NCBI RefSeq assembly: GCF_000023965.1
Contig: NC_013202.1
Coordinates: forward strand, 1,830,001 to 1,862,000
Length of the DNA stretch: 32,000 nt
DNA from: Halomicrobium mukohataei DSM 12286
Lineage (GTDB): Archaea > Halobacteriota > Halobacteria > Halobacteriales > Haloarculaceae
Direction of reading: 5' to 3'
In this document: positions 7,423 through 24,757 of the stretch, piece by piece
Layout: each line of letters starts with the position of its first letter
Numbering within the stretch: position 1 is the stretch's first letter
Notes under the pieces: model-generated
The model's database searches: none
What the model was told of the DNA's origin: nothing
The model's input: the letters and a program-made list of their open reading frames with translations, nothing else
Program-made: the position numbers and the translations under genes

Positions 7423-8366
7423 GCGCGCTCGTAGAGGACGACGCCGCCGCTCTCTTCTCGCTCGACGCGACCTCGTTGTTCCAGCACGTCCAGGTGGCCG
7501 ACAGCCTCGCTCATGCCCGAGAACTGCTCGGTCACGGGGAGGTCACCGAAGAGTCCCTCCATCACGCTGACCGGCGTCGTGGGGCTATCCAGTAGCGTCT
7601 CGACATCGTCGGTGCGGTCCTCGTGTTCGGCTCTGATGGCCTCGATGCGTGCGCTTGGCTCCTCGATGTCCGTTCTGTGGCCCGGCAGGAATCGATCGTA
7701 CCCCGCCGTCGCGAGCCGGTCGAGCGAGTCGTTGTACCGCGGCAGCACCCGCGGCCGCGCCTCGCCGTCGTCGGCCGGCGGCTGGAGGAAAGGGTTCGGC
7801 GTGATGTCGGCCAGCACGTTGTCGCCGACGATCGCCCGGCGTTCGCCGTCGGCCTCGAACGCGAAGAGGACCTCGCCGACGGAGTGGCCGACGAGATCGT
7901 CGACCGCGACGAGGCTGTCGTCGACGGTGACCTCGTCGCCGGCAGCGACCGACCGATCGACCGTGACGCTGGACGCGTAGTTGAGGAACGCCTCGGGCAG
8001 CTGTGTGACGGTCTCGGCGGTCTCGGCCGCCATACCACAGCGCTCGAAGAAGTCCACGAAGTACGCCTGCTCGTGATCGAGTCGTCCCGCGAAGTCTTCG
8101 AGGATCGGCGTCGCGGGCTCGCTGGCGACGATTCGGGCACCCCGTTCGCCAAAGCGGTGAGCCAGCCCGAAGTGGTCCGGGTGGGGGTGGGTGATCAACA
8201 CTTGCTCGATATCGTCGGGCGCGAGCGACCGCGCTTCCAGGGCCGTCAGCAGCTCCGACCACGCTTCCTCGCTGTCGGGGCCGGGATCGACGATCGTCCG
8301 ACCGGCGAGGTAGCTGTTGACTGGGCCGACCTGAAACGGCGTCGGAAGTGACACACGGCGAAACAT
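7419..8366 (-). CDS. MBL-fold metallo-hydrolase
   Basis: 315 aa with an HxHxDH motif (VLITHPHPDHFGLA) and an N-terminus typical of the family (SLPTPFQVGPVNSYL). Acidic composition. Confidence 0.8.
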   Translation of the reverse strand: MFRRVSLPTPFQVGPVNSYLAGRTIVDPGPDSEEAWSELLTALEARSLAPDDIEQVLITHPHPDHFGLAHRFGERGARIVASEPATPILEDFAGRLDHEQAYFVDFFERCGMAAETAETVTQLPEAFLNYASSVTVDRSVAAGDEVTVDDSLVAVDDLVGHSVGEVLFAFEADGERRAIVGDNVLADITPNPFLQPPADDGEARPRVLPRYNDSLDRLATAGYDRFLPGHRTDIEEPSARIEAIRAEHEDRTDDVETLLDSPTTPVSVMEGLFGDLPVTEQFSGMSEAVGHLDVLEQRGRVEREESGGVVLYERA

Positions 8367-8455
8367 ACCACCCGTACTCGCTCACGCTGGAAAACAGTTC
8401 TCTCAACGCCAGTCGCGCCACAAACGATTTATTCGTCCTCTGCCGAAGGTCAGAT

Positions 8456-8584
8456 ATGGACAGGCACGTCGAAGACACACGGTACTACCGCAAACGCGCG
8501 GGTACGACGGCGAAGAAAGGCGTCACAGCCGAACTCGAAGCGGCGCGCGAGCGGATCGGGTCCTATCGCCGGACAGAGGCCTGA
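8456..8584 (+). CDS. small basic protein (42 aa), function unknown
   Basis: ATG at 8456 is preceded by a TATA-like box (cgatttattcg, 8424-8434) at leaderless spacing. Protein is MDRHVEDTRYYRKRAGTTAKKGVTAELEAARERIGSYRRTEA. Coding status uncertain because of the short length. Confidence 0.4.
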   Translation: MDRHVEDTRYYRKRAGTTAKKGVTAELEAARERIGSYRRTEA

Positions 8585-8632
8585 TCGGGAAGACAATTCT
8601 TAAGTCGACTCCTCGAATAGCAACAGGTGTCC

Positions 8633-8706
8633 GGGTTGGTGATCTAGTCGGTTATGATACCTCCTTCACACGGAGGAAGTCGGCGGTTCGAATCCGCCCC
8701 AACCCA
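8633..8706 (+). tRNA. tRNA-Val (anticodon CAC)
   Basis: Cloverleaf folded by hand. Acceptor GGGTTGG/CCAACCC, anticodon stem CCTCC/GGAGG with loop TTCACAC, T arm GGCGG-TTCGAAT-CCGCC, discriminator A. No encoded CCA. T5 run immediately downstream. Confidence 0.9.
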
Positions 8707-8757
8707 TTTTTGACGACACCACACCGCGAGCGCAGCGAGCGGTCCATGTCGTCAAAA
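8707..8757 (+). terminator. T5 run followed by an 11-bp inverted repeat (TTTTGACGACA ... TGTCGTCAAAA) with a 28-nt loop
   Basis: Seen directly. The oligo-T abuts the tRNA 3' end. The loop contains GCGAGCGCAGCGAGCG, related to a motif in the downstream repeats. Confidence 0.4.
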
Positions 8758-8773
8758 CTGTTGACAAGGATTC

Positions 8774-8974
8774 GAACCCTATCAGTCGCGCGCAGCGAAG
8801 CGAGCACGTCTGATTCCGGTTCGAATCCGCCCCAACCCACTTCTGGGACGAACGGACGTGAGAAACGGAGTGAGAACGCTGATGAGAACCCTATCAGTCG
8901 CGCGCAGCGAAGCGAGCACGTCTGATTCCGGTTCGAATCCGTCCCAACCTACTTCTGGGACGAACGGACGTGAG
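8774..8974 (+). repeat. Tandem duplication (two 89-nt units, 8774-8862 and 8886-8974, period 112 nt, 87/89 identical), each carrying a copy of the 3' 22 nt of tRNA-Val
   Basis: GGTTCGAATCCGCCCCAACCCA (tRNA 8685-8706) recurs exactly at 8818-8839 and with 2 mismatches at 8930-8951. The flanks on both sides of the core are also duplicated. Confidence 0.85.
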
Positions 8975-9032
8975 GAGCGAACGCGTTCGAGACACGTTGC
9001 CACCGGTGCGACGATCCATCAGATGCCGAGCT

Positions 9033-9052
9033 GGCTCGTCCGTCCCCAACAC
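9033..9052 (+). repeat. Possible third, decayed copy of the tRNA-Val 3' end
   Basis: GGCTCGTCCGTCCCCAACAC aligns to GGTTCGAATCCGCCCCAACCC with a 2-nt gap and about 3 mismatches. It lies about 100 nt after the previous copy. Confidence 0.3.
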
Positions 9053-9080
9053 GTAATCCGCTGGCGGTCGCGTGGCTGGT

Positions 9081-9644
9081 ATGAGCGACGATCCACTGCA
9101 CGAACGGATGGCCCGCTACGAGCAACTCGCCAGAGAGGCCAGGGAGCGTGCCAGCGAGCGCGACGCCGTCGGTGACGAGGTGGGTGACCGACTCGCCGAC
9201 GCGATCGCCGAGGCGGTCGACGAGGCGGGTGTCTCCATCGGGGCCGTCGATCGCTCGCGGGACGGTCACCACTACCGGTTCACGGCGCGACTCGACCGCG
9301 CGGCGCTGGTCGCGGCCCTGACCGACGCCTTGCCGGCCGGGTTCGTCGTCTCGCACGTCAACGACGACGGATCGCTGAGCATCGAGTGGACGGGCTCGGA
9401 TCGGACGCCGTCGAAGCGCGAACACGGGGCAGTGTTGAAAGCGATCGTCGCCGAGGCGACCGAGACCGACGCCGACGGACTCATCGAGTCGGTACCGTCT
9501 CGGACGGCCGTCCTCGACCGGGCCGAACAACTGGGGATCGACCGGGAGGACGCCGCCGATCGGCTGAGTCGGCTGGCGACGCTCGACGTGGTCGACATCG
9601 CCGACGGCCGGGTCTACCCGGACACGAACTTCTCGCGGTACTGA
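9081..9644 (+). CDS. acidic conserved-hypothetical-type protein
   Basis: ATG at 9081 (alternative GTG at 9072). 187 aa with high GC3 and haloarchaeal acidic composition. No motif recognised. Confidence 0.6.
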   Translation: MSDDPLHERMARYEQLAREARERASERDAVGDEVGDRLADAIAEAVDEAGVSIGAVDRSRDGHHYRFTARLDRAALVAALTDALPAGFVVSHVNDDGSLSIEWTGSDRTPSKREHGAVLKAIVAEATETDADGLIESVPSRTAVLDRAEQLGIDREDAADRLSRLATLDVVDIADGRVYPDTNFSRY

Positions 9645-9680: not shown

Positions 9681-10043
9681 TCACTCGCTGAGATCGACCG
9701 TGCCTTTCGAGTCCCAGATCTCCATCATCAGCTGGGCGAAGGTGGCCGTCCGGACGGGGTAGCCGTCGGCGTTGGTCGCGTCGACGGGCTTGCTGGCGAG
9801 CTTCTCGACGATCGTCTCGTTGTAGTCCATGTCCGCGAGCGTCTCGCGCACGTCGAAGGTGAACGTCCCGTCGTCGTCGGTCGTGAGCCATGCGGCGGCC
9901 TGTGCCTTCTCGCTGTACTCGATCGTGTACGTCTCACCGCCGACGAGGTCGTAGATGTCGTCGAGGCGTCCGATTTCGAGATCGTCGTCGCCGACCTCGA
10001 CGAACAGCGTGTCGTCGTCGATGCGGGTGTCGTACCGCTCCAT
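9681..10043 (-). CDS. small acidic hypothetical protein (120 aa)
   Basis: ATG at 10043. Strongly acidic (MERYDTRIDDDTLFVEVGDDDLEIG...) with good codon bias. Convergent with the preceding gene. Confidence 0.6.
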   Translation of the reverse strand: MERYDTRIDDDTLFVEVGDDDLEIGRLDDIYDLVGGETYTIEYSEKAQAAAWLTTDDDGTFTFDVRETLADMDYNETIVEKLASKPVDATNADGYPVRTATFAQLMMEIWDSKGTVDLSE

Positions 10044-15078: not shown

Positions 15079-16086
15079 ATGACAGATCTGGGCAAGATCG
15101 ACGCCTCGTTCTTCGACGAGACGATCTATCCGAACCTCGGCGCGTCGCGGGCCGACGTGACTGTCGGGCCGCGCCACGGCGTCGACTTCGGGGTCCTCGA
15201 CGTGGGCGGGCAGGCGGTCGTGATCGCGACCGATCCGGTCTCTCTGCTGCCGGAGCTCGGGCTCGAACGCGCCGGCCGGTTCGCTCTGGAGATCGTCCTG
15301 ACCGATGTCGCCGTCTCGGGTGTCCCGCCGACCCACCTGGCGATGAGTCTCACGCTGCCGCCGTCCTGGAGCGACGACGACCTCGCGACGGTGTGGCGGG
15401 CGATCAGCGACCACGCCGAGCGCCTGGGCGTGAGCATCGTCTCGGGTCACACCGCGCGCTACCCCGGCATCGACAGCTCGTGGGTCGGGGGTGCGACGGT
15501 GCTGGGCGTCGGCGACCACGACGACGTCGTCCGCCCCGACGGTGCGACGCCCGGCGACCGGCTCGTCGTGACGACCGGGCCGGCGGCCGAGGTGACGGGC
15601 CTGCTCTCGACGCTGTTTCCCGAGCGGCTGGGCGTCGACGCCGAAACCGTCGCGATCGCACAGGAGCGCGTCGACGACATCGCGGCCGTGGCCGACGCGC
15701 GGACGGCCTTCGCGGCCAGCGGCGTCACGGCGATGCACGACGCCACGGAGGGGGGCGTCGTCGGCGGGCTGACCGAGATGGCGAGCGGAGCCGGTGTCCG
15801 CTTCGAGGTCGACAGCGACCGGATGCCGGTCCGGCCCGGCGTCGAGGCGGTGTGTGACGCCCTCGACGTGGATCCGTGGATGGTGACGAGTGCGGGAACG
15901 CTGTTGCTGACCGTCGAGCCGAGGGCCGCGGACGACGTGGTCGAGGCGTTGCGCGATCGCGGGACCCCGGCAGCGACCGTCGGCGAGGTCGTGGCCGGCG
16001 AGGGCGTCGTTCGCGACGGGGAGCGCGTCCACCCGCCCAACGGCGACCCCTCGTGGGACGCGTTCGACCGACTGAGCGGGGCCTGA
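15079..16086 (+). CDS. AIR synthase-related (PurM/ThiL/HypE-fold) protein
   Basis: ATG at 15079 (alternative at 15040). N-terminal GxDFGVLD...VIATDP pattern and C-terminal AMHDATEGGVVGGL pattern typical of the AIR-synthase-related family. Confidence 0.7.
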   Translation: MTDLGKIDASFFDETIYPNLGASRADVTVGPRHGVDFGVLDVGGQAVVIATDPVSLLPELGLERAGRFALEIVLTDVAVSGVPPTHLAMSLTLPPSWSDDDLATVWRAISDHAERLGVSIVSGHTARYPGIDSSWVGGATVLGVGDHDDVVRPDGATPGDRLVVTTGPAAEVTGLLSTLFPERLGVDAETVAIAQERVDDIAAVADARTAFAASGVTAMHDATEGGVVGGLTEMASGAGVRFEVDSDRMPVRPGVEAVCDALDVDPWMVTSAGTLLLTVEPRAADDVVEALRDRGTPAATVGEVVAGEGVVRDGERVHPPNGDPSWDAFDRLSGA

Positions 16087-16460: not shown

Positions 16461-17771
16461 ATGAGCAAGGACAGTCCTGGGACCGCCGTTCCGGGCCACG
16501 GCGCGCGCTCGGGGTGGTCGCGCGAACAGGCGAGTCGCATCGAGCGAACCGACGACACGACGGCACCGATCGTCTACCCGCCCGCGACCGACCAGGCACC
16601 CGACGTTCACGTCTGGGACACCTGGCTGTTGCGCGAGCGCGACGGCACGGTCGCCACCGTCGACGGCTACCGTGTCACGTTCTCGCTGACTGCGCCGGCC
16701 GATCTCTTGCCGGGCAAGCGCCACGACGTGGCGACGATCCGGTACTTCTACTCGGCCGACGGCCGGACGTGGCAGCCCGGTGGCGTCGTCTTCGAGGAGC
16801 CGCTGGGCCAGCGCACCTGGGCCGGCTCCGCGCTGTACGACGACGGCGACATCTACCTCTTCTACACTGCGGCCGGGGAGCGCGGGGCGGACGAACTCAC
16901 CTACACCCAGCGCATCGTCGCCGCGTCCGGGGGGACACCGCGGACCGACGGCGAGTTCGCCATCGAGGGGCCCTGGACCCACCACGAACTGCTCCGCCCG
17001 GATGGCGACCGCTACGAGCGCCAGGACCAGTCTCGCGGCATGACCTACACCTTCCGAGATCCGTGGTTCTTCGAGGACCCTGCGACCGGCGAGACGCACC
17101 TCCTGTTCGAGGCCAACACGCCGGTGCCGGCGGCGAGCGACGCCTGCGGCGGCGACCCGGATCTACAGTCGTTCAACGGCAGCGTCGGCCTCGCGCACTC
17201 GCCGACGGGTGACCCCCTCTCCTGGGAGCTGTGTGACCCGCTGCTGGATTCGGTCTGTGTCAACCAAGAGCTCGAACGTCCCCACGTCGTCCCCCGGGAC
17301 GGCCGCTACTACCTCTTCGTCTCCAGCCACGACCACACCTTCGCGCCGGGGCTCGACGGCTACGACGCGCTGTATGGCTTCGTCGCCGACTCCCTGCGTG
17401 GCGACTACGTCCCGCTCAACGACTCCGGACTGGTCGTGACCAACCCCGCGAACGCCCCCTTCCAGGCGTACTCGTGGATGGTGTTCCCGCACCGGGAGGA
17501 AGTGCTGGTCCAGAGCTTCTTCAACTACTACGACTTCGAGGCCGACTCGATGGATCGGGTCGCAGACCTGCCCGAGTCCGAGCAGCTGCGACGCTTCGGC
17601 GGAACGCTCGCGCCGACGCTGCGCCTCCGGGTCGAGGGGACCCACACGGAGATCCTCGGGACGCTCGACCACTGGCAGATCCCGCTGCCCGACGAGGTCC
17701 TGCCGCCGACGGACCGAGAGTACTTCGCGGGCGAGAGCGGCGACGGCGGATCGTACTATAGTAGCCATTGA
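16461..17771 (+). CDS. GH68-family fructosyltransferase (levansucrase or inulosucrase-like)
   Basis: The three GH68 catalytic motifs are recognisable: VWDTWLL (nucleophile), FRDPWFF (RDP), and NQELERPHVV (the DEIER-type acid/base motif). No N-terminal signal peptide is evident. Confidence 0.8.
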   Translation: MSKDSPGTAVPGHGARSGWSREQASRIERTDDTTAPIVYPPATDQAPDVHVWDTWLLRERDGTVATVDGYRVTFSLTAPADLLPGKRHDVATIRYFYSADGRTWQPGGVVFEEPLGQRTWAGSALYDDGDIYLFYTAAGERGADELTYTQRIVAASGGTPRTDGEFAIEGPWTHHELLRPDGDRYERQDQSRGMTYTFRDPWFFEDPATGETHLLFEANTPVPAASDACGGDPDLQSFNGSVGLAHSPTGDPLSWELCDPLLDSVCVNQELERPHVVPRDGRYYLFVSSHDHTFAPGLDGYDALYGFVADSLRGDYVPLNDSGLVVTNPANAPFQAYSWMVFPHREEVLVQSFFNYYDFEADSMDRVADLPESEQLRRFGGTLAPTLRLRVEGTHTEILGTLDHWQIPLPDEVLPPTDREYFAGESGDGGSYYSSH

Positions 17772-17780
17772 AAATCAATG

Positions 17781-17816
17781 CACACCCGATCGCACGACGG
17801 CAGTGCGATCGGTGTG
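17781..17816. terminator. 14-bp hairpin (one bulge) between the convergent GH68 and GH32 genes
   Basis: CACACCCGATCGCAC-gacggca-GTGCGATCGGTGTG, 10 nt after the GH68 stop. The reverse-complement core resembles the core of the 84-nt repeat. Confidence 0.45.
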
Positions 17817-17940
17817 TAAATCGTTTCAATTGTTACTATACCGCTAGGGACTGCTCCGCGCGGGGTCGCCGGAGTAGACGGTACCACGCCACGTGCAGAC
17901 GATTCCCCGAGCACGTCCCGATCGACGCCGGTAACGGGTG

Positions 17941-20058
17941 CTACCAGATCGACGCCAGCTCCCAGGCTTCGACTGTCGGCAGTCGCGCGCGGCCGCCGAC
18001 GGTCGCGAGGTCGACGCCGGTCGCGTCGTCGCCGGCCGGATAGACGCGGCTCGTCAGGCAGTGGCGCTCGTTGGCGAACAGTTCGACGACCGACCCGTCG
18101 ACGAACACGCGCAGGTCCAGGGGCTCGTCGTACGGTGTGACGGGCACGTGCTGACTGTCGCTCGTCGCGCGCGGGTCCCTGCTGGAGCGACTGCGATCGA
18201 CTTCGAGCACGTCGTCTCTCGTGTATCGCAGCGTCGTGCGCTCGTTCTCCGTCGCCGTCCCGAGCAGCGTCACCTCGACGGCGTCGGCGTCGACCAGCGA
18301 GAGGCGGGTGGCGAGTTCGAACGAGCGTCCGTCGGTGTCCAGCCGGATCGACTCGCCGTCGTCGAGCGTGACGCTCTCGCGGGACTCGCAGTCGCCACGG
18401 AGTTCGGTCAGTTCCCGGGCCGGTCGCTGTCGGAGGCGGCCGTCGTCTCCGAGGGACAGCTCCCGCGGGAGCGACATCGTCCCCGACCAGCCGGCGTCCC
18501 ACTGGGCGCTCACGTCGCGCGCCTCGGGGACCCATCCCCAGGTGAGCAGGCGGCCGTCGTCTGCCCGGAGCGACTGCGGGGCGTAGTAGTCGCCGCGGTC
18601 CAGCGTCCCGCGTCGCTCCGGCTCGAAGGTCGCGCCGTCGAACTGGCCGAGGAAGTAGACCACGTCCTCGTAGTTCGAGACGTGCAACAGCTGCTTCTCC
18701 CCGAGGTCGAGTAGCTCCGGGCACTCCCAGACGGTCTCCTGTGGCGTGTCGCGGTCCCCCGAAAGGATCGGGCCACGGTACTCCCACTCACGGAGGTCCG
18801 GGGATTCGTACAACAGGACGACGCCGCCACCGTCGGCCAGTCCGGATCCGATCAGCTGGTACCAGGTCTCGCCCTCCTGCCAGACGCAGTGGTCTCGGAA
18901 CTCCCCGTTCCACTCCTCGGTCGAGAGCAGGTCCGGCTCCGTCGGGGGCGCTTCGATGATCGGATTGTCCGTCGCTTTCTCCCAGCGCCGCAGGGAGGGG
19001 TCGTCCGCCGTCGCGAGACAGGGCAGCTGGTCGCGGCCGCGCCCACCCGTGTACACGAGCGTCGCCGCGCCGTCGTCGTCGACCGCACAGCCCGACCAGC
19101 AGCCGTCGCGGTCGGGACCGTCCGGCGAGGGCGCGAGCGCAACGGGTTCGTCCTCCCAGTGGAGGAGGTCGTCGCTGACCGCGTGGCCCCAGTGGATCGT
19201 GTCGTGGTACGGGCCGCCGGGATTGTACTGGTAGAAGACGTGGTAGCGACCGTTCCACTGGACGACGCCGTTGGGGTCGTTGAGCCAGTTGGCGGGCGTC
19301 GAGAGGTGAAACTGCGGGCGGTGTGGATCGTCCTCGAAGCGATCGCGCAGGGCGGCGATCTCGCCGCCGGTCCGTGGTCGTTCGGGGATCGCGCTGTCGG
19401 CGGCGTTCGTCAGGACCGCACGGGCGAGCCTGTCGCGCTGGTCGTGGTCGCCGCCCTCGGCCGCGAAGACGAGGCCGTCACCGAGGCCGACGACGGAGCC
19501 GTCACCCAGCGACCAGCCCACGACGGTCACGAGGCCGGGCACGTCGTGGTCGGCGCTGACAGTGCTTGCCAGTACCTCGCCACGTTCCGGGAGGATCGAA
19601 TCGTAGCGCGCGAGCGTCGCGTCGGTGCCGCCTCTGGTGAGCGGCCGGCGCGTGGCCAGTGGCTCGAACAGAGGGTGGTCGTCGTAGGCCGTCTTGATCA
19701 GCGGACCGGTCGGGCCGCCGTCTGGGTCCGGCCCGACCGCGTCGGGGGTGACGGGGTCGATGCCGAGATCGTTCACCGCGGTCAGCGCCGCCAGCGAGAG
19801 GACGAGCCCGCCGCCCGAGCGGACGAACGCTCGGAGGACGCCGCCGAGGTCGGTAGTCGATCCCAGCTTCGGGGGCTCGTCGGCGTGCCACCAGCAGGTG
19901 TCGAACGCCGCCAGCGAGCGGTCGCCGTCGACGAGGTCGCTCACGGCGACGGGCGTCAGGTCCAACCCCGCCGTCTCGGCCCACTCGTCGGCCGCGGCCT
20001 GCTCCACGGACCGCCCGCCGTCGTGGAGCGACGCGATACGCACTGCCGTATCAGTCAT
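17941..20058 (-). CDS. GH32-family beta-fructosidase or fructan hydrolase with an N-terminal extension of about 240 aa
   Basis: ATG at 20058 (the track start at 20064 is TTG). GH32 motifs WLNDPNG, FRDH and WECPEL are followed by a beta-sandwich-length C-terminus. The N-terminal part has no motif I recognise. Confidence 0.8.
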   Translation of the reverse strand: MTDTAVRIASLHDGGRSVEQAAADEWAETAGLDLTPVAVSDLVDGDRSLAAFDTCWWHADEPPKLGSTTDLGGVLRAFVRSGGGLVLSLAALTAVNDLGIDPVTPDAVGPDPDGGPTGPLIKTAYDDHPLFEPLATRRPLTRGGTDATLARYDSILPERGEVLASTVSADHDVPGLVTVVGWSLGDGSVVGLGDGLVFAAEGGDHDQRDRLARAVLTNAADSAIPERPRTGGEIAALRDRFEDDPHRPQFHLSTPANWLNDPNGVVQWNGRYHVFYQYNPGGPYHDTIHWGHAVSDDLLHWEDEPVALAPSPDGPDRDGCWSGCAVDDDGAATLVYTGGRGRDQLPCLATADDPSLRRWEKATDNPIIEAPPTEPDLLSTEEWNGEFRDHCVWQEGETWYQLIGSGLADGGGVVLLYESPDLREWEYRGPILSGDRDTPQETVWECPELLDLGEKQLLHVSNYEDVVYFLGQFDGATFEPERRGTLDRGDYYAPQSLRADDGRLLTWGWVPEARDVSAQWDAGWSGTMSLPRELSLGDDGRLRQRPARELTELRGDCESRESVTLDDGESIRLDTDGRSFELATRLSLVDADAVEVTLLGTATENERTTLRYTRDDVLEVDRSRSSRDPRATSDSQHVPVTPYDEPLDLRVFVDGSVVELFANERHCLTSRVYPAGDDATGVDLATVGGRARLPTVEAWELASIW

Positions 20059-20210: not shown

Positions 20211-20339
20211 CTACGGAGCCATCCGCGCCCGGGACTTGTACTCGATGATCGTCTCGTGACACCGCGGGCAGACGAACTCCGTCAGCTTCGTCGTCTCGTC
20301 GTTGTAGCTCATTCTGACGCCACACGCCGGACAGTTCAT
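20211..20339 (-). CDS. zinc-ribbon micro-protein (42 aa, CPxCG ... CPxC)
   Basis: ATG at 20339. MNCPACGVRMSYNDETTKLTEFVCPRCHETIIEYKSRARMAP has two Cys pairs. A TATA-like box (gctttaac on the minus strand, 20365-20374) lies about 30 nt upstream, inside the longer 94-aa track ORF. Confidence 0.55.
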   Translation of the reverse strand: MNCPACGVRMSYNDETTKLTEFVCPRCHETIIEYKSRARMAP

Positions 20340-20608: not shown

Positions 20609-21718
20609 CTAGGCGTTCTCGCCGAGGCGCTCTGCGATCCGCTGGGCACCGATCGTCGGGGCGATGTCGGGCTGGTCGGCGGCGATGGCCTCGATCTCGC
20701 GGTTCAGCTCCTCGCTGAGTCGGCGCTCGAACTCCTCGACGATCCCCGGGATACAGGCCATTCCGCCCGTGAGGACGATCGGCCGGTCCAGCGCCAGCTG
20801 GTACACTTTCATGTAGTCGTTGGCCAGCTCCGGGAGGAACGTGTTGGCGACTTCCTCGACCGCGTCGTCCAGGTACTCGTCGACAGCGTCCATCACCGAG
20901 CGTTCGATCGTGAACTCGTGAGAGCCCCCGCCGGGCTGTTGAATGATGTCCGTGAAGGGCTCGAAGTCGACGAAGTCGGCGTGTTCCTCTTTGTACTCGC
21001 GGGCCGTCTGGGTATCGATGTTGACCCGCCCCTGGGTCTCTTCCTCGACGTAGTTCGCGATCATGCGGTCGACCTCGTTGCCGGTCACGGCTCCGGTCGT
21101 GAACGGCGCGAGCTGTTCACCGCGCCGGTAGGCCGACGCTTCGAGGTTCGTCGATCCCATGTTGACCGCCAGGAAGATCTCGTCGATGGCTTCCAGATCG
21201 TCGCCGAAGGCCGGGATCGCACCACAGAGGGACTCGGGGTAGCTCTCGACGAGGTGCTTGCCGATCGAACTGCCCTCGATGACCGAGGTGAGGTTCTCCA
21301 GGCCCTGAGGGTTGTCGATCGTCGGAATCGCGTAGACCACGGCGCTGTACTCGGGGAGGTCGTTCTGGTCGATCAACGCCTGGAAGAACGTCTCGGTCAG
21401 CTCCGCCCGGTCCTCGTCTTCCGGCAGTCCCGACCGGAGCATGAACTGGACGCGGTCGGGGTACTCTGCGGCTGCCTCCTCGCCGTAGAGTACCTTCTCC
21501 TCGCCGGTCAGTGCGTCCTCGTAGGTCGCGAGACAGGTCAGGGTCCTGATGATCTCGTCCTCGGTGCCACGGGCTCCGGGGACGGAGATGACGGTTCGGG
21601 TGCTGCCGAGCTTCACGCCGATGGGCACTGCCGCCTCGGCGTCGCCGACCGGTGATTCCTCGTCGACTGACTCCGACTGGTCGCCCGTCGAGGCGTCGTC
21701 TGCCGCGTCGTCACTCAT
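20609..21718 (-). CDS. actin/MreB/ParM-fold (ASKHA) ATPase with an acidic N-terminal tail
   Basis: ATG at 21718. Phosphate-1-like IGVKLGSTRTV, phosphate-2-like LAVNMGSTNLEA, and adenosine-motif-like IVLTGGMACIPGI, in the canonical order and spacing. Confidence 0.7.
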   Translation of the reverse strand: MSDDAADDASTGDQSESVDEESPVGDAEAAVPIGVKLGSTRTVISVPGARGTEDEIIRTLTCLATYEDALTGEEKVLYGEEAAAEYPDRVQFMLRSGLPEDEDRAELTETFFQALIDQNDLPEYSAVVYAIPTIDNPQGLENLTSVIEGSSIGKHLVESYPESLCGAIPAFGDDLEAIDEIFLAVNMGSTNLEASAYRRGEQLAPFTTGAVTGNEVDRMIANYVEEETQGRVNIDTQTAREYKEEHADFVDFEPFTDIIQQPGGGSHEFTIERSVMDAVDEYLDDAVEEVANTFLPELANDYMKVYQLALDRPIVLTGGMACIPGIVEEFERRLSEELNREIEAIAADQPDIAPTIGAQRIAERLGENA

Positions 21719-21741
21719 GTGCCAGTGGTTTTCCCGCGTCC

Positions 21742-21750
21742 GATATATAT
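21742..21750 (-). promoter_or_regulatory. TATA box (ATATATATC on the minus strand) for the actin-fold ATPase gene
   Basis: AT-rich octamer centred about 28 nt upstream of the ATG at 21718, consistent with a leaderless haloarchaeal transcript. Confidence 0.45.
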
Positions 21751-21836
21751 CCCCCGACCGAACTAACAGAGCTGATAATCGAACTGCCAGCAAGCACGCC
21801 GCTCGACCATCCGTCCGCGCGACCCGTTCATACCGA

Positions 21837-21903
21837 TTATTGTAGCGATTTACCGGTGATCGTCTACTCCGTGGCGACGATCACCGGTAAGCAACTACAA
21901 TAA
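21837..21903. other. 67-nt composite inverted repeat (9-bp plus 15-bp arms, 11-nt loop)
   Basis: TTATTGTAG-cgat-TTACCGGTGATCGTC-tactccgtggc-GACGATCACCGGTAA-gcaa-CTACAATAA. It starts 7 nt after the stop of the ArlD/E-like gene and lies upstream of the actin-fold gene promoter. Confidence 0.8.
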
Positions 21904-21909
21904 ACCGTA

Positions 21910-22398
21910 TCAGGCCATCGAGTGGAGCTTCGCGACGTAGACGAGACTCAGCATGTGATCGTCCACGTCGAGGCTGGCACCGTCGTTGGTCCCCGACTCG
22001 TCGATACCACGGAGGTAGTCCGACAGCGACGACTGGACGTCGTCGGTGATCCAGTCGATGTCCTCGTAGTAGTCGAGTGCCTCCTCGGCTCCCTGGTACC
22101 CCGAGTGCATCAGGAGGAACTCCAGCCACTCGAAGACGACGAACTCGGCCGCGTAGTTCTCGGGCAACGCCGCCAGATACGGCTTCTCCGTGCCGTCCGA
22201 GCCGAGGAAGGGCAGCAGCTCGCGGTAGAGACCGGCACGGAACGAATCGCCCGCGGGAGCGTCGCCGCCCTCGTCCATCGCCATTCCCAGCTCGGCCGGA
22301 TCGAGCGTCTCCTCGTCGCCCATCCCGTTGCCCGGCCGCTGTTGCTTTGCCATCTTCCGTAACTCGTCGAGATCGTAGTCGCGCGGATTGATGGTCAT
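21910..22398 (-). CDS. orphan ArlD/E (FlaD/E)-domain protein
   Basis: ATG at 22398 (the upstream start at 22422 would fall inside the TATA region). The C-terminal PYLAALPENYAAEFVVFEWLEFLLMHSGYQGAEEALDYYEDIDWITDDV matches my memory of the archaeal flagellar FlaD/E family core. Confidence 0.6.
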   Translation of the reverse strand: MTINPRDYDLDELRKMAKQQRPGNGMGDEETLDPAELGMAMDEGGDAPAGDSFRAGLYRELLPFLGSDGTEKPYLAALPENYAAEFVVFEWLEFLLMHSGYQGAEEALDYYEDIDWITDDVQSSLSDYLRGIDESGTNDGASLDVDDHMLSLVYVAKLHSMA

Positions 22399-22423: not shown

Positions 22424-22433
22424 GTGTTAAATC
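22424..22433 (-). promoter_or_regulatory. TATA box (GATTTAACAC on the minus strand) for the ArlD/E-like gene
   Basis: Centred about 31 nt upstream of the ATG at 22398. Confidence 0.4.
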
Positions 22434-22571: not shown

Positions 22572-23483
22572 ATGAGTCGCCAATCTGGGTCCACTGTAGC
22601 GCGCCTGTGTGTGACGAACGCCAAAGGCGGCACCGGGAAGACGACGGTCGCCGTCAACGTGGCCGGCGCGCTCAACGAACGCGGCCGTGACGTGCTGTTC
22701 GTCGACCTCGACCCTCAGGGCAACGCCACGGAGGCACTGGGGCTGGTCGAGAGCTACGACGCCCAGCCACCGACGCTGTTCGACGTGCTGACGAGCGCCG
22801 ACCAGCGCTCGTCGATCGCGGATCTGATCGTGGACCACGACGAGATGGACGTGGTTCCGAGCAACATCGACATGCTCCAGGTCGAACACGAACTGACCAT
22901 CGCCGACCTCGTGGCGCGGGTCCAACACGACGACTCGATCGACATCGATCCCGAGACGCTGAGTGACCTCTCGCTGAACGTCACGCCCGATTCTGTCTCG
23001 GGCGCGCACGCACTCGACGTACTCGACGAGGCACTCGCCGTGGTCGAGGACGACTACGACTACGTCGTCATCGACTCGCCGCCCTTCTACGGGAAACTCA
23101 CAGACGCCGGTATCTACGCGTCTCAGAACATCCTCGTCCCGGCGCTGACCGAGGCGTCCTCGGAACGAGCCATCGAACTCCTGATCGACCAGATGGCCGC
23201 TCTGGAGGGCCAGACCGGCATCACCGTCAACACGCTCGGCGTGGTCGCCAACCGGGTCGAGAAGACGAACGAAGACGAGACGATGCTGTCGTGGCTCGGC
23301 GAGGTGTTCGAGGAGTTCCCGATCTGGGAGGTCCGCAAGCGCGTCGCGCTCCAGCGGGCTTTCACAGCCGGCAGTTCTATCTTCCAGTACGAGGAATCCG
23401 TGGACATGGAATCGGTCTTTCTCGACGTTGCGACGGAACTGGACAGACAGTTCGGCCTGCTGGACGAGGAGGTGCCGGCATGA
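22572..23483 (+). CDS. ParA/Soj-type P-loop ATPase (deviant Walker A)
   Basis: Deviant Walker A NAKGGTGKTT with the signature Lys. A' motif VDLDPQGNAT. Walker B YVVIDSPP. 303 aa. Confidence 0.88.
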   Translation: MSRQSGSTVARLCVTNAKGGTGKTTVAVNVAGALNERGRDVLFVDLDPQGNATEALGLVESYDAQPPTLFDVLTSADQRSSIADLIVDHDEMDVVPSNIDMLQVEHELTIADLVARVQHDDSIDIDPETLSDLSLNVTPDSVSGAHALDVLDEALAVVEDDYDYVVIDSPPFYGKLTDAGIYASQNILVPALTEASSERAIELLIDQMAALEGQTGITVNTLGVVANRVEKTNEDETMLSWLGEVFEEFPIWEVRKRVALQRAFTAGSSIFQYEESVDMESVFLDVATELDRQFGLLDEEVPA

Positions 23484-24757
23484 GCGACGACGACGAGCGC
23501 ATGGACCGCGCCAAACGGATCCGCCGGATGCGCGAAGGCCAGCGGTCCGGCGACGACGCCGACGACTCCGGGGAGGCGGACGCAGACGACACGGAGGCCG
23601 ACGACGCAGCGACGGACGCAGCCGACGAGCCGGAAGCGCCGACCGACGACGAGTCGGAAACAACTGAAGCAGCCGACGAGCCGGAAGCGACTGCAGAGTC
23701 GTCTGACGCTGCGTCCGAGGCAGTCGACGACACGGAGGCCGACGACGAAGCGACGGACGCAGCCGAGGACCCGGCAGTGACGACCGACGACCCACCAGCG
23801 ACCGACGAGGAGTCACCGTCGGAGACGGAAGCCGACGACGCGGTGACGGACCCGGAGGGCGACACGGCCGCCGAGAGGGACGAACCGAGCGAACGAACGC
23901 ACGCGACCCCACAGAACGAGGCGGCCCAGCAGCCGGCACGGGCGGACGGCGCCTCCCAGGGGACGGACGGCACACAGACGAGCGACGACAGTATGAACGA
24001 GGGCACTTCGGCGAGCGACCCGGAGGAATCGAACACGACCGACGAGGGGTCACCCGACCCCGAGGCAATCGCACAGCGGGCCGCACAGGCGGCGGCCAGT
24101 GTCTCGGGCGGCGGGACAGAGACCCAGTCGTCCCAGGCAGGTGGGGGCGAACCGACGCCGGCAGAGACTGCCGCCGCGGTCCAGGAGGCCAGCGGCGTCG
24201 AACTCCCCGACCAGGAACAGATCGACGCTGCGCTGGCGGCGTCCGACGAGTCGACCGCGGACGCCGCGAGCACGGAGACAGCACCGTCGGCGGTCGAGTC
24301 AGAGAGCACGACGACCGAGGAGTCGACGCGCGTCCTGGAGTTTACGCTCGGCGACGAGCACTACTGCATCGACATCTCGCTGGTCGAGGAGATCGTCAAA
24401 CGTGACACGATCACGCGCGTGCCAAACACCGACGAGTACATCGAGGGCGTGGTCGACCTGCGGGGCCAGATCACGACGATCCTCGATCCGAAGGCGCTGC
24501 TCGACATCGACGCCGAGGGCCAGGAGTCCCTGATGATCGTCTTCGACCCCGAAGCGTTCGACGACCAGGGCGCGATCGGCTGGATCGTCGACGAGGTCCG
24601 GCAGGTCGCTCCCGTCGTGGAGTCCGAGATCAACGAGCCCCCGGTCAACGACGAGTACATCCGGGGCGTCGTCGACCGCGACGACGGGTTCGTCATCTGG
24701 ACGAAACCCGAAGTGGCGATCAAGCTCGCGACCGCCGAGGAGACCGACGACGGGTAG
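23480..24757 (+). CDS. CheW-domain protein with a basic N-terminal peptide and an acidic disordered linker of about 255 aa
   Basis: ATG at 23480 overlaps the parA stop (ATGA). Residues 8-24 are basic (MDRAKRIRRMREGQRSG). Residues about 25-280 are D/E/T/A/S-rich with internal repeats. Residues about 283-420 look like a CheW fold (VLEFTLGDEHYCIDISLVEEIV...IEGVVDLRGQITTILDPKALL...IRGVV). Confidence 0.75.
   Translation: MSDDDERMDRAKRIRRMREGQRSGDDADDSGEADADDTEADDAATDAADEPEAPTDDESETTEAADEPEATAESSDAASEAVDDTEADDEATDAAEDPAVTTDDPPATDEESPSETEADDAVTDPEGDTAAERDEPSERTHATPQNEAAQQPARADGASQGTDGTQTSDDSMNEGTSASDPEESNTTDEGSPDPEAIAQRAAQAAASVSGGGTETQSSQAGGGEPTPAETAAAVQEASGVELPDQEQIDAALAASDESTADAASTETAPSAVESESTTTEESTRVLEFTLGDEHYCIDISLVEEIVKRDTITRVPNTDEYIEGVVDLRGQITTILDPKALLDIDAEGQESLMIVFDPEAFDDQGAIGWIVDEVRQVAPVVESEINEPPVNDEYIRGVVDRDDGFVIWTKPEVAIKLATAEETDDG

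Follow-up and report, generated by a model that had tools for sequence, protein, structure and literature searches.

A stretch of 32,000 nucleotides from Halomicrobium mukohataei DSM 12286 (NC_013202.1, positions 1,830,001 to 1,862,000 of the forward strand; hereafter, the window) carries two neighboring genes on its minus strand, arlD, which encodes a protein of the archaellum motor, and the gene for salactin, a haloarchaeal actin. Here, we report that arlD and salactin form a conserved module among haloarchaea and that the Haloferax volcanii protein HVO_1202, encoded inside the motility and chemotaxis (mot/che) cluster, is salactin. The identities of both genes and their conserved linkage are, in our judgment, practically certain. 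As the best overall explanation, we lean toward a coupling of salactin filaments to the polar archaellum base by ArlD. Both proteins are known already, and the conserved pair itself appears new to the searched literature; no link between salactin and ArlD was found in the searched literature that mentions salactin, part of which was covered at the level of titles and abstracts.

The arlD open reading frame (ORF) runs from ATG to TGA, encodes 162 amino acids (aa), and lies, as originally described, on the same strand as the salactin ORF (369 aa), from which a spacer of 191 bp separates it (coordinates are given in Table 1). Both ORFs have haloarchaeal coding statistics (GC content at third codon positions [GC3], 0.88; Asp plus Glu, 21%). 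The nearest public sequences to the window genes were those of Halomicrobium mukohataei and Halomicrobium katesii (99% identity), and the 162-aa protein was 99% identical to a Halomicrobium mukohataei protein named “flagella E.” Its residues 71 to 159 matched Pfam family PF04659 (Arch_fla_DE; E = 4.1e-30; 104 bits, cut-off 21; profile positions 2 to 95 of 96), which bears out the FlaD/E-type core that the original prediction had read from the strings AAEFVVFEWLEFLL...ALDYYEDIDWI, both present in the protein.

The window protein aligned from end to end, at 40 to 42% identity, with the FlaD1 cluster of Haloferax, whose gene immediately precedes salactin in that genus; with Haloferax ArlD2 it aligned over the domain region only (approximately 31% identity), and with ArlCE the alignment was confined to the E domain. 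The 90%-identity cluster of the Haloferax protein includes ADE02570.1 of Haloferax volcanii DS2, named “Fla cluster protein FlaD1” and “arl cluster protein ArlD,” while a nearby 151-aa paralog is named “FlaD2.” When Haloferax ArlD1 was used as the query, the best matches outside the Haloferacaceae were salactin-linked Haloarculaceae proteins, the same ones that were found with the window query. Judged by alignment and naming, the small protein is a full-length ortholog of Haloferax volcanii ArlD1/FlaD1 (HVO_1203), and an ArlD2-like orphan-paralog identity is ruled out by the alignment and the cluster names. The original prediction had taken the small protein for an orphan and its neighbor for an uncharacterized ATPase; the orphan framing was wrong, as each gene is a new member of a family already known.

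The window ArlD and Haloferax ArlD1 share the N-terminal motif M-x-[ILV]-[DN]-P-x-x-Y-D-x-x-E-L-R. In an alignment of eight sequences, drawn from several genera and from two metagenome contigs, residues P5, Y8, D9, E12, L13, and R14 were invariant, and in a set of 44 sequences their conservation was 90% or higher; the motif occurred exactly once per source in 75 of 90 scanned sequences, including the window. It was absent from the ArlD2 and ArlCE sequences aligned; as far as these alignments reach, the motif is specific to the salactin-linked ArlD1 lineage. The linker that follows it shows large length differences among ArlD1-type orthologs. In an AlphaFold2 (AF2) model of the window ArlD (predicted local distance difference test score [pLDDT], 54.8; below 50 for residues 21 to 55), the ArlD/E domain was all-helical at moderate to low confidence. 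Searches of PDB sequences with ArlD and with salactin gave no match, and no Halobacterium protein was among the matches listed for ArlD-type queries.

The two ArlD homologs of Haloferax volcanii share 35% identity; deletion of arlD1 leaves cells non-archaellated and non-motile, and deletion of arlD2 leaves motility unaffected (PMC7534055). The equation of the deleted arlD1 with HVO_1203 relies on the FlaD1/ArlD cluster names, the HVO number being absent from the papers. Motility returns when FlaD-GFP is provided in trans, and the fusion labels the motor at the cell poles (PMC6509185), so the defect of the arlD1 deletion is not a polar effect on salactin. ArlD belongs to the cytoplasmic part of the archaellum motor/switch complex, binds ArlCE and ArlH, and is needed for CheF docking (PMC6509185, PMC7534055), and the localization of both ArlD and ArlCE requires ArlH (PMC7534055). 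These roles are established for Haloferax volcanii only and are predicted for the window ortholog. ArlD1 foci are polar, and small foci move discontinuously, sometimes from pole to pole (PMC6509185).

No archaellum gene was found within the 32-kb window, in agreement with the original placement of the pair outside an archaellum operon. In Halobacterium salinarum, flaD lies outside the co-transcribed flaCE-J unit (PMC2666748), so it is normal for a haloarchaeal arlD to lie away from the arl operon; a position in or beside an arl cluster, which is lacking in the window, is a weak criterion in this group. The Halomicrobium protein resembles Haloferax volcanii ArlD1 in its domain, size class, N-terminal motif, linker, C-terminal placement of the domain, and downstream salactin. 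It differs in its limited identity (the 40 to 42% given above) and in its setting: the Haloferax volcanii gene follows cheY-cheC-cheD within the mot/che cluster, whereas the Halomicrobium gene is detached from arl/che operons and is divergent from parA and a cheW-like gene.

By its profile matches, the 369-aa protein is unambiguously salactin. It scored 622.8 bits on Pfam Salactin (PF25229; cut-off, 27.1; profile positions 2 to 334 of 335) and 602.6 bits on the NCBIfam equivalog NF053533 (cut-off, 400; positions 2 to 335 of 335), compared with 42 bits for BeeR, 33 for MamK, 21 to 25 for MreB, and 18 for Volactin. The actin fold proposed earlier thus holds, and the protein falls in the salactin family rather than with the sugar kinases or Hsp70-like proteins that had been considered; hidden Markov model (HMM) scores rule out Hsp70, sugar-kinase, MreB, ParM, and volactin identities. 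The acidic N-terminal tail that had also been noticed (MSDDAADDASTGDQSESVDEESPVGDAEAA, residues 1 to 30) lies outside the HMM match. G34, K36, G38, S39, and T42 of the glycine-rich motifs were invariant across salactin family representatives. The family is small, with only 69 clusters (50% identity) at an E value of ≤0.001 among 1.84 billion representative proteins. A tblastn search with salactin against plasmid (PLSDB) and phage collections gave no match, so a plasmid-partition origin gains no support.

The salactin of Halobacterium salinarum (VNG0153C) forms dynamically unstable, ParM-like filaments, which grow from polar foci by monomer addition at the distal end and then collapse to the pole; MamK is the subfamily closest to salactin (PMC10746226). 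Polymerization, dynamic instability, and polar growth are established for the Halobacterium salinarum protein only and are predicted for the Halomicrobium salactin, which belongs to the same family (by curated HMMs), matches over the full length, and likewise has a disordered, acidic N-terminal tail and a gene on the chromosome. The two differ in genus and in gene context, the Halomicrobium gene sitting right behind arlD and near parA and cheW-like genes.

To survey the arlD-salactin pairing, a salactin alignment was run against a single genome of each species, and the 80 closest loci were kept (salactin identity, at least 70%; mostly Haloarculaceae). The two genes, which the original prediction had paired from the window alone, co-occur widely: in 64 of the 80 loci, the gene just upstream of salactin, in the same orientation, was a PF04659 ORF, with a median spacer of 81 bp from stop to ATG (60 loci measured). 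Seven further loci, all Halosimplex, had ArlD approximately 5 kb upstream, separated from salactin by an insertion of approximately 4.9 kb (L031:5047-9728) that holds a 260-aa regulator-like gene in the opposite orientation and a 1300-aa membrane-protein gene; arlD and salactin both kept their original orientation around it. In three Halovenus loci, ArlCE-like genes flanked salactin in place of ArlD1. The reverse scan agreed, as all 28 metagenome loci found through an ArlD1 alignment (skewed toward Haloarculaceae) carried a downstream salactin on the same strand, adjacent in 22 and at approximately 5 kb in 6.

Individual look-ups showed the pair in Natrinema gelatinilyticum (Natrialbaceae) and a Haladaptatus sp., and it was present also on contigs whose salactin was only 46 to 50% identical to that of the window. 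The pair thus spans at least four families, Haloarculaceae, Haloferacaceae, Natrialbaceae, and Haladaptataceae. Flanking genes changed with the clade, being parA and cheW-like genes in most Haloarculaceae, cheD and a histidine kinase gene in Haloferax, and rhodanese, methyltransferase, insertion sequence (IS), or toxin genes in the remaining clades; only arlD-salactin was constant.

Other salactin arrangements were seen as well. Two tandem salactin paralogs without an ArlD/E-domain neighbor occurred at L071:4276-6642. Two loci on metagenome contigs of 36 to 90 kb (L118 and L119, positions 8001 to 9116) encode a remote salactin-like actin that scored 135 bits on the salactin model, short of the cut-off, and that likewise had no ArlD/E partner. 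Its neighbors include genes for ribonucleotide reductase, Thy1, an SNF2 helicase, and a large terminase, along with a weak CbiA/ParA match; these contigs probably derive from a tailed virus or provirus with its own actin.

Haloferax ties the pair to the motility machinery. There, the gene order is arlI-H-G-F-CE, cirA, arlA2-A1, csmR, DUF7500, cheY-cheC-cheD, arlD1, salactin, histidine kinase, and arlD2, and the product of the gene after arlD1 scored 445 bits on the salactin equivalog, above the cut-off of 400. Published locus tags (HVO_1203, ArlD; HVO_1205, CheD; HVO_1206, CheC; HVO_1213, ArlCE [PMC12091111, PMC9436352]), together with this order, identify HVO_1202 as the salactin ortholog; the protein was still labeled “conserved hypothetical protein” in 2026. 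Salactin HVO_1202 belongs to the motility regulon in Haloferax: “ArlD/HVO_1202” is listed as one transcription unit in transcriptome sequencing (RNA-seq) data and is upregulated with arl/che units in a csmR deletion (PMC13286277), and all 25 genes from HVO_1201 to HVO_1225 fall together in a zinc-finger-protein mutant (PMC10716476). The salactin of the Haloferax volcanii group (L121:5634-6731), just above the equivalog cut-off, was 47% identical to that of the window, and the salactin of Haloferax larsenii (L078:9986-11053) was 73% identical; salactin evolution appears to have accelerated within the genus.

The Halovenus sp. HT40 locus (L061:5445-20162) reads cheC-cheD-arlCE-salactin-arlCE-arlH-salactin-arlCE-arlH-arlI-arlJ, placing two salactin equivalogs (589 and 520 bits) inside an archaellum motor cluster. 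The three arlCE-like genes, one of whose products has an N-terminal hydrophobic segment, and the repeated arlH and salactin genes give this cluster the appearance of a duplicated motor module that includes an actin. Two more Halovenus genomes (L067 and L077) had three ArlD/E-domain proteins of 400 to 500 aa around salactin; the assignment of Halovenus ArlCE-like genes to an archaellum cluster applies to HT40, the one genome annotated.

We propose that the two proteins work together, with ArlD as an adaptor between salactin filaments and the archaellum motor base or polar cap. On whether ArlD and salactin are directly coupled in function, a question approached here through genes and alignments, we are evenly divided. 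Contact would be made via the ArlD/E domain and perhaps also via the conserved N-terminal peptide on its flexible linker; ArlD1 has a layout that suits an adaptor, in which a flexible acidic linker joins a short conserved helix at the N terminus to the helical ArlD/E domain. In the one Halovenus genome inspected, the ArlCE-like neighbor of salactin lacked the N-terminal motif, and the relevant partner may therefore be the ArlD/E domain as such. In one version, ArlD would anchor or nucleate the pole-proximal end of the filament; in another, motor pre-complexes containing ArlD would ride the growing distal tip to the opposite pole. The idea of an ArlD/E-domain protein linking a filament to the archaellum base or cell pole was already part of the original prediction; it is consistent with all our findings and is the leading hypothesis. 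ParM/ParR of plasmid R1 and MamK/MamJ of magnetosomes are bacterial actin-plus-adaptor cytomotive pairs. They offer a functional analogy, not a homology, in that a small adaptor gene adjoins an actin-like filament gene with conserved co-orientation; unlike in those systems, the domain of the putative adaptor here is that of an archaellum motor protein and not a DNA-binding or magnetosome-binding domain. Centromere-like repeats were not noticed at the locus, though no search was aimed at them.

Several observations weigh against this coupling. An ArlD/E-domain neighbor of salactin was absent in 5 of the 80 genome loci (5 of 79 informative loci, as one ended at a contig edge), and salactin relatives at 36 to 48% identity lacked an ArlD/E-domain partner. 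According to the salactin paper, synteny is poor even inside the genus Halobacterium, and DNA replication/repair genes lie nearby (PMC10746226), so the pair is probably split in Halobacterium salinarum, the sole organism in which salactin has been studied. The salactin deletion in that species has wild-type soft-agar motility, and its sole phenotype is in DNA partitioning at low phosphate (PMC10746226). For ArlD localization, a dependence on ArlH has been reported (PMC7534055) and one on HVO_1202 has not. Confidence in the AF2 model of ArlD is low, as its pLDDT indicates. In Halomicrobium, co-transcription of arlD and salactin is uncertain, because each gene has its own TATA-like element and a palindrome has been inserted between them (described below).

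The main rival reading is co-regulation without contact, whereby ArlD would serve nothing but the archaellum motor, and salactin would be confined to chromosome partitioning or to some other task at the pole; both products would be needed in the same cell state (motile, polarized rods) and would share an operon for that reason. The deletion mutant that swims normally and is affected in DNA distribution fits this account, as do the co-regulation of entire mot/che clusters and the apparent dispensability of the pair in some genomes. We hold it to be possible but the less probable course, because the pair is intact away from motility genes, beside IS and toxin genes, in Natrinema and Haladaptatus, because the link from ArlD to salactin held in every metagenome locus of the reverse scan, and because in Halovenus an ArlD/E-domain gene stands beside each of the two salactin paralogs despite the replacement of ArlD1 by ArlCE-like proteins. 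Tight adjacency combined with complete turnover of the flanks usually, we infer, marks genes whose products interact.

The original picture of an orphan ArlD/E paralog that has departed from the archaellum system and serves solely as adaptor for an uncharacterized actin-like ATPase is unlikely and largely refuted. The absence of an arl operon within 32 kb and the existence of a dispensable paralog, ArlD2, in Haloferax volcanii (PMC7534055) would suit it, but the window protein groups with ArlD1/FlaD1 and not with ArlD2 by full-length alignment, N-terminal motif, and Haloferax-query matches, ArlD1 is the homolog whose deletion abolishes archaellation and whose FlaD-GFP fusion restores motility in trans (PMC6509185), and the ATPase is salactin. 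Even less credible, and in our view very improbable, is inherited synteny without selective meaning, inflated by the sampling of related genomes. The 80 loci are indeed the closest salactin relatives and come mostly from one family, but the pair is kept across four families and down to approximately 46 to 50% salactin identity, while the outer neighbors on both sides of the pair vary between clades. Coupling of ArlD and salactin at the archaellum base remains the leading hypothesis.

Table 1. Features of the arlD-salactin locus and its divergent neighbors (window coordinates)
Feature	Position	Strand	Basis
arlD (ArlD1/FlaD1 ortholog), 162 aa	21910..22398	-	PF04659; alignment to Haloferax FlaD1 cluster
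N-terminal motif, residues 1-14	22357..22398	-	Alignment of ArlD1-type proteins
Acidic disordered linker, variable, residues ~21-48	22255..22338	-	Ortholog length variation; AF2
ArlD/E (PF04659) helical domain, residues 71-159	21922..22188	-	Pfam
TATA-like element GATTTAAC, ~30 nt upstream of arlD ATG	22426..22433	-	Sequence read directly
81-bp palindromic repeat element in arlD-salactin spacer	21830..21910	-	RNA fold; Halomicrobium katesii copies
TATA-like element ATATATAT, ~28 nt upstream of salactin ATG	21743..21750	-	Sequence read directly
Salactin, 369 aa: acidic tail 1-30, actin fold 31-365	20609..21718	-	PF25229; NF053533
ParA/MinD-type ATPase, divergent from arlD	22572..23483	+	AAA_31, CbiA, ParA families
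CheW-domain protein, 425 aa, divergent from arlD	23480..24757	+	PF01584, 84 bits

The position of the TATA-like element of arlD would fit a leaderless haloarchaeal transcript, and the second element suggests that salactin could be transcribed independently in Halomicrobium. The intervening palindrome is near perfect (RNA fold, -35.2 kcal/mol; z = -5.1) and takes in the final base of the arlD stop codon. Halomicrobium katesii (L001) has three copies (9832-9868, 15348-15384, and 16492-16528): the copy at the same site has its 11-nt loop reverse-complemented, and the two further copies occur in both orientations. The palindrome looks like a small element of the miniature inverted-repeat transposable element (MITE) or repetitive extragenic palindromic (REP) type, with hairpin-loop inversion between strains. 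Its insertion explains the long spacer in Halomicrobium compared with the median of the genome loci.

The ParA and CheW proteins that had been remarked on as neighbors are encoded by a divergent pair in which the parA stop codon overlaps the ATG of the cheW-like gene (ATGA), an arrangement of translational coupling. In the CheW-like protein, an acidic disordered stretch of approximately 270 aa lies between a basic N-terminal helix (MSDDDERMDRAKRIRRMREGQR) and a C-terminal CheW domain. The two genes were found together, divergent from arlD, in 44 of 71 ArlD1-carrying genome loci. ParC/ParP of Vibrio and PpfA/TlpT of Rhodobacter are positioning systems for chemosensory arrays. The window pair is built comparably, with a ParA-type ATPase and a partner in which a long linker connects a basic N-terminal peptide to a C-terminal CheW-type domain; unlike those systems, it is archaeal and its linker of approximately 270 aa is very acidic, and the likeness is one of architecture only. 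By this analogy, the locus is suggestive of two positioning-type ATPases, each beside an adaptor with a domain of the motility or chemotaxis machinery, and ParA is possibly part of a wider polar module. A fuller version, which we consider rather doubtful, would make ArlD the polar receptor for salactin, anchoring or launching dynamically unstable filaments that bring motor pre-complexes, and possibly chromosomes, to the new pole, with the ParA and CheW-like proteins as a parallel system of ATPase and adaptor for chemosensory arrays, the four genes together being a polar positioning locus.

The remaining window genes include nuo, tRNA-Val, an ABC permease, GH68, GH32, a DRG GTPase, and a glyoxalase. 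A 42-aa zinc-ribbon ORF (CxxC...CxxC; 20211-20339, minus strand) lies 270 bp downstream of salactin, and its homologs recur 0.2 to 2.4 kb downstream of salactin in many Haloarculaceae loci. Adjoining the arlD-salactin module at positions 16461 to 20058 are a levansucrase-like GH68 gene and a GH32 gene in convergent orientation, the latter encoding a protein with an N-terminal extension of approximately 250 aa; GH68 and GH32 are a haloarchaeal fructan-metabolism pair.

Salactin is one of only two characterized haloarchaeal actins, and its gene is the downstream partner of arlD in most of the haloarchaea examined. Its discoverers drew nothing from the gene neighborhood, and their paper is silent on archaella, flagella, chemotaxis, ParA, and CheW (PMC10746226). 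ArlD can now be named as a concrete candidate for the role of polar anchor or of cargo adaptor for salactin, and Haloferax volcanii already has ArlD1-GFP strains, arl deletions, and live imaging. Even without coupling, the annotation of the “conserved hypothetical” HVO_1202 and the “orphan FlaD/E” reading of the small protein are corrected. If coupling is real, it would account for the small ArlD foci that move between poles, and if ArlD is moreover the polar receptor for salactin, there would be a link between DNA partitioning and the way in which the motility organelle is inherited.

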